From the IMG/VR virus record IMGVR_UViG_3300042868_005134, positions 303,636-367,635 of that record: a stretch of DNA of 64,000 bases. One strand, 5' to 3'. A program made the position numbers and the translations under genes. How positions within the stretch are numbered: the stretch's first letter is position 1; each line of letters opens with the position of its first letter. Source of the stretch: a virus. The notes beneath the pieces are model-generated. The model was not told where the DNA came from and did no database searches. It was given only the letters and a program-made list of their open reading frames with translations. Of this stretch, positions 54,653 through 54,883 are shown in pieces.

Positions 54653-54883
54653 TTATCTGACTCTTCGCAGATAATCTGAATTGATTTTTCCACTCTGTAT
54701 TTCTAACAGAGCTGTAACCGGAGCATTCAATTGCTCAGGACTTTCACTTAATCTGTGTTGCCTTGCCAATTCTCTTGCTCGAATTGCGGCAACAATAACA
54801 AGGTCGAATCTGTTGCCTATGTTGCTAACACAGATATCGGTATTGATATCTGTTCCCCGACTTGCTATATTATTACGTTTCAT
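54653..54883 (-). CDS. rpoZ: DNA-directed RNA polymerase omega subunit homologue
   Basis: Its 'IGNRFDLVIVAAIRAREL' and '...VTALLEIQSGKIN' segments align with the conserved core of bacterial RpoZ (IGNRFDLVLVAARRARQ...IALREIEEGLIN). An AGGA RBS lies 5 nt upstream of the ATG. Confidence 0.7.
   Translation of the reverse strand: MKRNNIASRGTDINTDICVSNIGNRFDLVIVAAIRARELARQHRLSESPEQLNAPVTALLEIQSGKINSDYLRRVR

Follow-up and report, generated by a model that had tools for sequence, protein, structure and literature searches.

An omega-like gene within a viral tRNA array

The window analysed here is a 64,000-nucleotide stretch of the IMG/VR virus record IMGVR_UViG_3300042868_005134 (positions 303,636 to 367,635). 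On its minus strand, embedded in a long array of transfer RNA (tRNA) genes, lies an open reading frame (ORF) that encodes a diverged homologue of omega (RpoZ), the smallest subunit of bacterial RNA polymerase (RNAP). The gene and its immediate surroundings comprise the following features, with all coordinates counted from the first nucleotide of the window.

54653..54883, minus strand: omega (RpoZ)-like coding sequence of 76 aa with ATG start and double TAA stop; based on the ORF list, profile matches, fold and the ratio of nonsynonymous to synonymous substitution rates (dN/dS)
54889..54892, minus strand: Shine-Dalgarno-like AGGA, 5 nt before the omega ATG, read from the sequence
54904..54977, minus strand: tRNA-Trp (CCA), found by ARAGORN and matched by the Rfam tRNA model with 57.1 bits; its 3' end lies 20 nt before the omega ATG
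54569..54642, minus strand: atypical tRNA-Met (CAT), found by ARAGORN only; its 5' end lies 10 nt past the omega stop
52110..60765, minus strand: tRNA array that holds omega and other small conserved ORFs; 38 tRNAs by ARAGORN, to which Rfam adds one above and two below threshold

The first-pass annotation had taken this ORF for a phage homologue of rpoZ that is embedded in the tRNA array and has its own ribosome-binding site, and had proposed the profiles PF01192 and TIGR00690 as a check. The assignment holds: the gene is preceded by AGGA and flanked by tRNAs, and the protein (MKRNNIASRGTDINTDICVSNIGNRFDLVIVAAIRARELARQHRLSESPEQLNAPVTALLEIQSGKINSDYLRRVR) passes the curated cut-offs of both profiles. 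It matches the Pfam family RNA_pol_Rpb6 (PF01192) with 40.4 bits (E = 3e-10; gathering cut-off 26 bits) over residues 18-67, an alignment that spans 50 of the 53 profile positions (2-51). The NCBIfam equivalog model for rpoZ, TIGR00690, gives 36.5 bits against a cut-off of 23.6 bits and aligns residues 11-68 with profile positions 2-60 of 60. Because both matches are domain-long, the similarity is not confined to a short low-complexity stretch, which was the objection that the annotation itself had raised.

In line with this, a phmmer search against the sequences in the PDB returned omega chains almost exclusively, including those of Vibrio cholerae (1.6e-7), E. coli (~1e-6) and Pseudomonas (2e-5). 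An AlphaFold2 model built from a 41-sequence family alignment has a predicted local distance difference test score (pLDDT) of 85.4 and a predicted template modelling score (pTM) of 0.71. Its four helices, at residues 15-22, 25-46, 54-63 and 69-75, are shifted by nine residues relative to their counterparts in E. coli omega. When this model was compared with the PDB by Foldseek, the top 50 hits were all omega chains, with a probability of ~1.0 and template modelling (TM) scores of 0.51-0.66; the accompanying E-values, at 0.02 or higher, are weak owing to the small size of the protein. Since the profile, sequence and fold matches all lead to omega, the similarity is real and domain-wide.

The best-matched bacterial omegas are gammaproteobacterial (Vibrio, E. 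coli and Idiomarina). They share with the viral protein the full-length domain, the four-helix layout and the core GNRF.LV..AA.RAR ... V.AL.EI..G. However, the viral protein is at most 45-52% identical to bacterial omega, carries three extra residues before the first helix and has SRG in place of MAR. The genomic setting differs as well: host omega is typically encoded in a gmk-rpoZ-spoT operon, whereas the viral gene resides in a phage tRNA array.

The viral omegas form a clade of their own

To place the protein, we compared 67 unique viral omegas with 63 unique omegas from Proteobacteria. In a neighbour-joining tree the viral sequences are monophyletic, and their core identity averages 0.64 within the clade but only 0.34 (maximum 0.45) to the bacteria. 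Conserved in both sets are V19 and, at 85% or more in each, N24, R25, F26, L28, V29, A32, A33, R35, V56, A58, L59 and G65, which together make up the omega/Rpb6 core.

The N-terminal motif MAR[VI]T[VI] is present in 62 of the 63 bacterial proteins and in none of the 67 viral ones. The latter begin with a variable leader of 5-7 residues, followed by a conserved S-R-G-[T/P]. In the ungapped register set by helix 1, residues A2-R3-V4-T5 of E. coli omega correspond to T11-D12-I13-N14 of the window protein, which follow 10 extra residues. Further along the chain, fixed switches from the bacterial to the viral residue are found at Q29 (to E38), K45 (to N53), R52 (to L60) and E55 (to Q63), and C18, H43, A54-P55 and Y71 are among the residues conserved in viral omegas only. 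The acidic tail is absent from the viral proteins, whose median length is 76 aa compared with 91 aa in bacteria. They end in a basic C-terminus, EYLKRVR, and their mean net charge is +4.5 as opposed to -6.5.

The signature of the clade, taken from alignment A1, is a protein of ~75 aa with a variable leader and SRG[TP], followed by CV, GNRF[DN]LV, RARE, LNAPVTALLEIQ and the C-terminal EYLKRVR, and encoded in a co-oriented tRNA array on a large phage contig. The window displays this signature in full, and the genomic context recurs in 22 of 22 orthologous loci.

A widespread family under purifying selection

A word-indexed search returned 62 relatives of the window omega with 50-91% identity, nearly all of them 75-76 aa long. 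The 22 orthologous loci come from IMG/VR. In every one of them the ORF is intact (74-76 aa) and is preceded, at the same position, by an AGGA or AAGG motif. The Nei-Gojobori dN/dS of the omega gene is 0.055 relative to the closest orthologue (dS 0.96) and 0.03-0.35 over the informative pairs, and the gene is under purifying selection. We conclude that the ORF is a real, selected phage gene, with predicted expression, for a diverged homologue of the bacterial RNAP omega subunit. Its embedding is kept throughout the 22 loci, with typical gaps to the adjacent tRNAs of 18-27 nt upstream and 0-9 nt downstream, while the flanking tRNAs themselves vary (Trp/Met, Met/Cys, Thr/Pro, Leu/Pro, Gly/Val, Ser/Cys).

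The family extends well beyond these orthologues. When 1.84 billion representatives were searched exhaustively with a profile, 1,592 matched at E <= 1e-3, and 141 matched at E <= 1e-10. The best 150 are almost all short (~60-95 aa) and basic, and none begins with MAR[IVL]T. This broader viral omega superfamily comprises at least 141 clusters at 50% identity and occurs on IMG/VR contigs that number in the hundreds and reach 356 kb. Three divergent subgroups are represented in IMG/VR by 56, 76 and at least 368 confirmed stretches, many on contigs of 130-356 kb. Subgroup A5 and a pooled alignment of divergent representatives (A2) proved too variable to be scanned by pattern. Of 208 further loci, 141 carry one or more tRNAs within 2.5 kb of omega, 102 carry at least three, and 76 have one within 300 nt. 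All 1,557 tRNAs in these loci are co-oriented with omega. The association reaches ~90% in the subgroups nearest to the window and 50% in subgroup A6.

The first-pass annotation considered omega to be rarely found in viruses. This is true of the cultured phages: a tblastn search with four viral omegas against 50,697 cultured-phage records recovered host rpoZ only and no viral-type omega, and PHROGs contains no family for the window omega or for three divergent viral omegas. It is not true of uncultured jumbo phages, on whose contigs the gene is common. Apparent cases of 'phage rpoZ' in the cultured-phage records were rejected as host DNA, given their gmk-rpoZ-spoT context and 100% identity to E. 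coli K-12. The records of 'Acinetobacter phage MD-2021a' (CAKLQH020000003.1 and CAKLQF020000004.1) contain host chromosome, with pil genes-ispH-gmk-rpoZ-spoT on a bacterial contig filed as phage. Those of 'Campylobacter phage A11a/A18a' (MG065691.1 and MG065686.1) do so too, with a 6-kb stretch (gmk-rpoZ-spoT-trmH) in an 'unverified' record that is 100% E. coli K-12. When 185,579 species genomes were scanned with the pattern NRF[DN]LV, which is biased towards Gammaproteobacteria, only ordinary bacterial omegas with 35-52% identity were found. This argues against both a recent capture and a prophage gene as the source of the viral clade.

Annotation pipelines have already labelled members of the family as omega, both at the Joint Genome Institute (JGI; 'RNA polymerase omega subunit') and in UniProt/BFVD (A0A6J5T227, A0A6J7WH19 and A0A6J5T9F2). 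The BFVD entries, listed under 'uncultured Caudovirales phage', belong to the same viral family (Foldseek probability 1.00, TM up to 0.70). However, the JGI and UniProt labels are pipeline output only, and we found no analysis, context or function for them in the searchable literature. Likewise, a full-text literature search that included a 2026 jumbo-phage survey returned no paper describing or discussing a phage-encoded omega. What is new here is a virus-specific, MAR-less and basic omega clade with a conserved tRNA-array context, which is widespread in uncultured jumbo phages.

Host-type promoters and the predicted transcription unit

All 38 tRNAs that ARAGORN detects in the window are encoded on the minus strand, as is omega. 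The transcription unit to which the gene belongs is framed by two sigma70 promoters.

55585..55613, minus strand: perfect sigma70 consensus promoter, TTGACA-17-TATAAT, the nearest one upstream of omega
53883..53911, minus strand: next perfect sigma70 consensus promoter downstream, at the start of the following tRNA transcription unit

Read from the promoter at 55613-55585, the unit contains tRNA-Glu, the tRNA at 55303-55384, tRNA-Cys, tRNA-Asp, a 154-nt spacer, tRNA-Trp, omega, tRNA-Met, tRNA-Leu, tRNA-Gly and further genes. No promoter- or terminator-like site of comparable quality was found between this promoter and the omega ORF, and, judged from the sequence, the gene appears to have no promoter of its own. 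With a sigma70 promoter upstream and none in between, the omega mRNA would have to be excised from a tRNA precursor made by the host sigma70 polymerase. The 5' end of the downstream tRNA-Met is the predicted cut site for RNase P.

Co-transcription of protein genes with tRNAs has precedents in the thrU-tyrU-glyT-thrT-tufB operon of E. coli and in the small ORFs of the T4 tRNA region. There too, the mRNA is embedded in a tRNA precursor and freed by processing, as we infer for the viral omega. In contrast to these cases, the viral gene has tRNAs on both sides within 0-27 nt, and this arrangement is kept while the tRNAs change.

Promoters of the same type are frequent throughout these genomes. The window contains 17 near-consensus sigma70 promoters (at most one mismatch) where 0.98 would be expected, all of them on the minus strand, which is the coding strand; perfect examples on this strand lie at 32506, 48655, 53083, 53883, 55585 and 61611. 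In the 2.09 Mb that surround 234 viral omega genes (related loci L001-L022 and L103-L314), 741 near-consensus promoters lie on the omega strand and 9 on the opposite one. For perfect promoters the counts are 296 and 0. Shuffled sequences give 13-21. By comparison, 0.78 Mb of bacterial loci contain 2 near-consensus promoters, and perfect ones are almost absent. A near-consensus sigma70 promoter precedes omega in 139 of 180 non-redundant viral loci, at a median distance of 267 nt.

The tRNA-Met downstream of omega is unusual, and its earlier description as initiator-like stands only in part. By eye, it has the C1:A72 mismatch that is typical of bacterial initiator tRNA. However, its anticodon stem lacks three consecutive G-C pairs (ARAGORN puts the anticodon at position 30), and it has no match to the Rfam tRNA model at E <= 0.1. 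The same odd tRNA-Met is also found 3' of omega in locus L001.

A tRNA that ARAGORN did not see lies at 55303-55384 (minus). It scores 36 bits with the Rfam tRNA model, above the gathering threshold, has an encoded CCA, and resembles tRNA-Tyr in its GTA anticodon and long variable arm. Two other stretches, at 59344-59431 and 60693-60765 (minus), are tRNA-like and match the tRNA-Sec model alone, below threshold. The 154-nt spacer between tRNA-Asp and tRNA-Trp (54978-55131, minus) has no Rfam match and no credible ORF, and could be an uncharacterised small RNA or a processing element. Across the spacers of the tRNA block, Rfam revealed neither a 6S-like RNA nor any other known RNA.

The window as part of a jumbo-phage genome

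The window is a fragment of a jumbo phage that is distantly related to the PA5oct group. The phage source assumed in the first-pass annotation is thereby confirmed; besides this kinship, it is evident from the head protease, the DNA ligase and a group of giant tail fibres.

8747-20766: giant collagen-like tail-fibre proteins

Other genes encode a head maturation protease, an ATP-dependent DNA ligase, a QueD-like enzyme, radical-SAM proteins and a Ro/TROVE-like protein. At the DNA level the window has no near match among cultured phages. A conserved protein encoded at 24122-25300 shares 33% identity with Pseudomonas jumbo phages of the PA5oct group, with Ochrobactrum and Sinorhizobium jumbo phages further off. 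PA5oct has no RNAP genes, depends on the host RNAP and is sensitive to rifampicin (PMC7318152). Contigs of 221, 346 and 351 kb, viral or metagenomic in origin, carry orthologues of the omega gene. The 351-kb contig and the window have a gene order in common, which comprises a nitroreductase, the omega-bearing tRNAs, Ro/TROVE, a DSP phosphatase, a metallophosphoesterase, an AAA_33 kinase and a hydrolase.

Among ~40 window ORFs scanned, we found no gene for a sigma factor, RNAP or the metabolism of guanosine tetra- or pentaphosphate ((p)ppGpp). The catalytic motif of beta-prime, [NSTA]AD[FY]DGD, and a beta signature are absent from all frames of the window and of the 2.09 Mb of viral flanks. In an IMG/VR scan with the back-translated beta-prime motif NADFDGD, no omega-bearing contig was among the matches listed.

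Directly downstream of the tRNA block, a cluster at 45616-51516 (minus) encodes a Ro/TROVE-like protein (DUF2828/DUF7788), an AAA ATPase, a DSP-type phosphatase, a metallophosphoesterase, an AAA_33 kinase and a DLH hydrolase. It is syntenic with positions 11055-15708 of locus L105 on the 351-kb contig. Its RNA-repair-like content suggests a module for tRNA maintenance or repair. Next to the tail-fibre genes, two large ORFs at 1614-5504 and 5520-8717 (minus; 1,296 and 1,065 aa) match neither Pfam nor PHROGs at E <= 1e-5.

Several further small ORFs lie in the tRNA block. One of 50 aa at 52189-52341 (minus; MPMYEATVRTPQGEEKKRIYADTPQEAKKLFEQLYGGPRAVPYIPHIVAS), between tRNA-Pro and tRNA-Val, has a Shine-Dalgarno motif and no PHROG match. 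Its protein is 100% identical in loci L006, L008, L009 and L010, where the omegas are only ~63% identical. As the corresponding DNA is only ~88% identical, all differences in this ORF are synonymous, and its product appears to be an extremely constrained micro-protein. Four small ORFs of 42-60 aa at 53059-53241, 60007-60135, 61183-61353 and 61407-61553 (all minus) lie in the tRNA block or at its edge. They are conserved in 2-10 related loci, some have Shine-Dalgarno motifs, and none has a PHROG match.

In five loci of subgroup A6 (L253, L281, L283, L286 and L298), omega overlaps the preceding gene, which encodes a basic protein of 95-103 aa with the Cys/His motif HH.MDCGNP.C..CGNPR; a metallophosphoesterase gene follows omega. 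Such an overlap points to translational coupling and to two genes that work as a functional pair. The partner belongs to phrog_4499 (unknown function) and is not a DksA/TraR-like protein. It has no homologue in the window.

A putative substitute subunit for host RNA polymerase

In cellular omega, the conserved omega/Rpb6 core is the part that binds beta-prime. As the viral proteins have kept this core, they most likely dock on the beta-prime subunit of the host, and because their N-terminus and surface charge differ systematically from those of host omega, they probably alter the behaviour of the host enzyme. We thus favour a reading in which an early-made viral omega docks on host beta-prime as a substitute subunit, and put its probability at roughly 0.55.

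Here, the host sigma70 holoenzyme would transcribe the region from the very strong consensus promoters, and the omega mRNA would be made early, as part of the tRNA precursor. Judging by general tRNA biology, it would then be freed by RNase P at the downstream tRNA and by 3' trimming of the upstream tRNA. The protein would finally take the omega position on host beta-prime, as phage sigma factors replace host sigma. Such sigma factors, for example T4 gp55 and SPO1 gp28, offer the closest functional analogy for the putative substitution, as they are likewise phage homologues of a dissociable host RNAP subunit that replace the host copy. However, sigma directs promoter choice, whereas omega is a core-associated subunit involved in assembly, processivity and the ppGpp site. 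The literature that we searched contains no description of a phage omega substitution.

Two consequences, possible singly or jointly, may follow from the exchange. RNAP without omega shows lower processivity, less stable elongation complexes and higher sensitivity to Rho (PMC13192885). A viral copy would guarantee an omega-bearing, processive and Rho-resistant polymerase for the long phage operons, including the untranslated tRNA array. The other consequence concerns ppGpp. Residues 2-5 of omega, together with R417 and K615 of beta-prime, coordinate the ppGpp phosphates at site 1, and binding is lost when residues 2-5 are deleted (PMC7676912). Across Proteobacteria, site-1 binding is predicted by the MAR motif (PMC6912228), and site 1 controls elongation, pausing and backtracking rather than the stringent response at the level of initiation (PMC10191844). 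The N-terminal extension of the viral omega may remodel or occlude this site and so relieve the ppGpp-dependent slowing of elongation that site 1 exerts in E. coli. The first-pass annotation had suggested that a phage copy could replace host omega or alter the response to ppGpp; the lack of MAR in all viral copies, together with the preserved core, lends this suggestion indirect support. TraR/DksA-like proteins of plasmids and phages likewise tune a ppGpp-responsive host RNAP on behalf of mobile elements (PMC7676912), a role that is putative for the viral omega. In contrast to omega, they bind in the secondary channel (site 2 region), and their sequence is unrelated to that of the viral protein.

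Taken to its full extent, this leads to an 'omega swap', in which the viral omega, co-transcribed early with the tRNAs, displaces or out-competes host omega, and its SRG-bearing N-terminus and basic surface remove site-1 braking, raise Rho resistance, or both. We regard this more specific scenario as tentative.

Several points weigh against substitution and its proposed effects. The 3'-terminal phosphate of ppGpp contacts main-chain groups of omega Ala2-Arg3-Val4 (PMC10191844), so the loss of MAR alone does not prove that binding is lost; indeed, the conserved SRG, three residues upstream, could rebuild a ppGpp site. Host omega is non-essential and its loss has only mild effects in E. coli (PMC7676912; PMC13192885), so it is not obvious what a phage would gain from a spare copy. 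The viral gene is also one of several small conserved ORFs among the tRNAs, and its position may point to a region of early genes, not to a functional link. Furthermore, the window covers 64 kb of a genome of probably ~350 kb, so a phage-encoded polymerase elsewhere is possible, and the reversal of charge is also compatible with a changed function away from RNAP.

This last point leads to an alternative that we consider unlikely but worth weighing, namely that the omega fold has been re-purposed to bind RNA or a factor for tRNA processing or translation instead of RNAP. The switch in net charge and the basic EYLKRVR would fit such a role, as would the residence in tRNA arrays, which persists across divergent subfamilies, and the RNA-repair-like neighbours (Ro/TROVE, kinase and phosphoesterases). 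However, constraint is strongest on the positions that are conserved in all cellular omegas, and the profile match spans the whole omega domain; no known RNA-binding motif was found, and half of the A6 loci have no tRNA within 2.5 kb. We give little credence to the idea that the protein is the omega subunit of a multisubunit RNAP encoded elsewhere in the phage genome, of which only about one fifth is visible. Jumbo phages of the phiKZ group encode split beta/beta-prime polymerases, and giant eukaryotic viruses encode Rpb6 along with a full polymerase. Rpb6 of the nucleocytoplasmic large DNA viruses (NCLDVs) is a virus-encoded member of the same omega/Rpb6 family (PF01192), and NCLDVs carry a complete multisubunit polymerase. 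Here, by contrast, neither a beta signature nor the beta-prime catalytic motif is seen in the window or in the 2.09 Mb around the 234 viral omegas, the protein is of the bacterial omega type (TIGR00690), and the promoters are dense and match the host sigma70 consensus. Phage multisubunit polymerases are not known to include omega. The nearest cultured relatives, moreover, have no RNAP genes and depend on the host enzyme (PMC7318152).

Very little speaks for a decoy, in which free phage omega would titrate an omega-recognising factor of the host or of a rival element, such as a regulator or a defence sensor. A precedent for a mobile-element regulator docking on omega is GafA of the Rhodobacter gene transfer agent (PMC9638019), and the changes in exposed surface residues around a preserved core would agree with a decoy role. 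Yet a decoy should mimic the host omega surface, and the viral protein has its charge reversed and shares no more than 45-52% identity with any bacterial omega; no partner is known either. It is hardly credible that the gene is a non-functional passenger, be it a captured host gene or a chance ORF, or that the window is bacterial. Omega is normally cellular and phage databases do contain contaminating host rpoZ, but this explanation is already contradicted by the selection and phylogenetic data: dN/dS is well under 1 throughout a clade in which synonymous divergence is saturated, and the viral sequences group as a single clade that has no close relative in bacteria and no copy found by the pattern scan of the species genomes. 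ORFs and ribosome-binding sites are intact in all loci, and the tail-fibre, head-protease and ligase genes, like the synteny with viral contigs of 221-351 kb, speak for a virus.

Implications

What omega does has been a matter of debate for decades, with proposed roles as an assembly chaperone, as part of ppGpp site 1 and, more recently, in processivity and RNAP condensates. The existence of a large, old and strongly selected viral family implies that omega is worth manipulating during infection. At the same time, the viral omegas are natural variants of precisely the disputed features, namely the N-terminus, R52 and the charged tail. Neither cultured phages nor PHROGs reveal this family, which shows the gaps of isolate-based catalogues.

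If substitution is confirmed, the replacement of a core subunit would join sigma replacement, ADP-ribosylation and inhibitors as a route by which phages hijack host RNAP, and would link this hijacking to the large tRNA arrays for which jumbo phages have as yet no explanation. If the full swap takes place, the hijacked enzyme could transcribe long untranslated tRNA arrays and genomes of ~350 kb processively while the cell is stressed and rich in ppGpp. No earlier viral takeover would have acted through omega, and the swap would provide a natural set of site-1 variants with which to dissect the role of this subunit.

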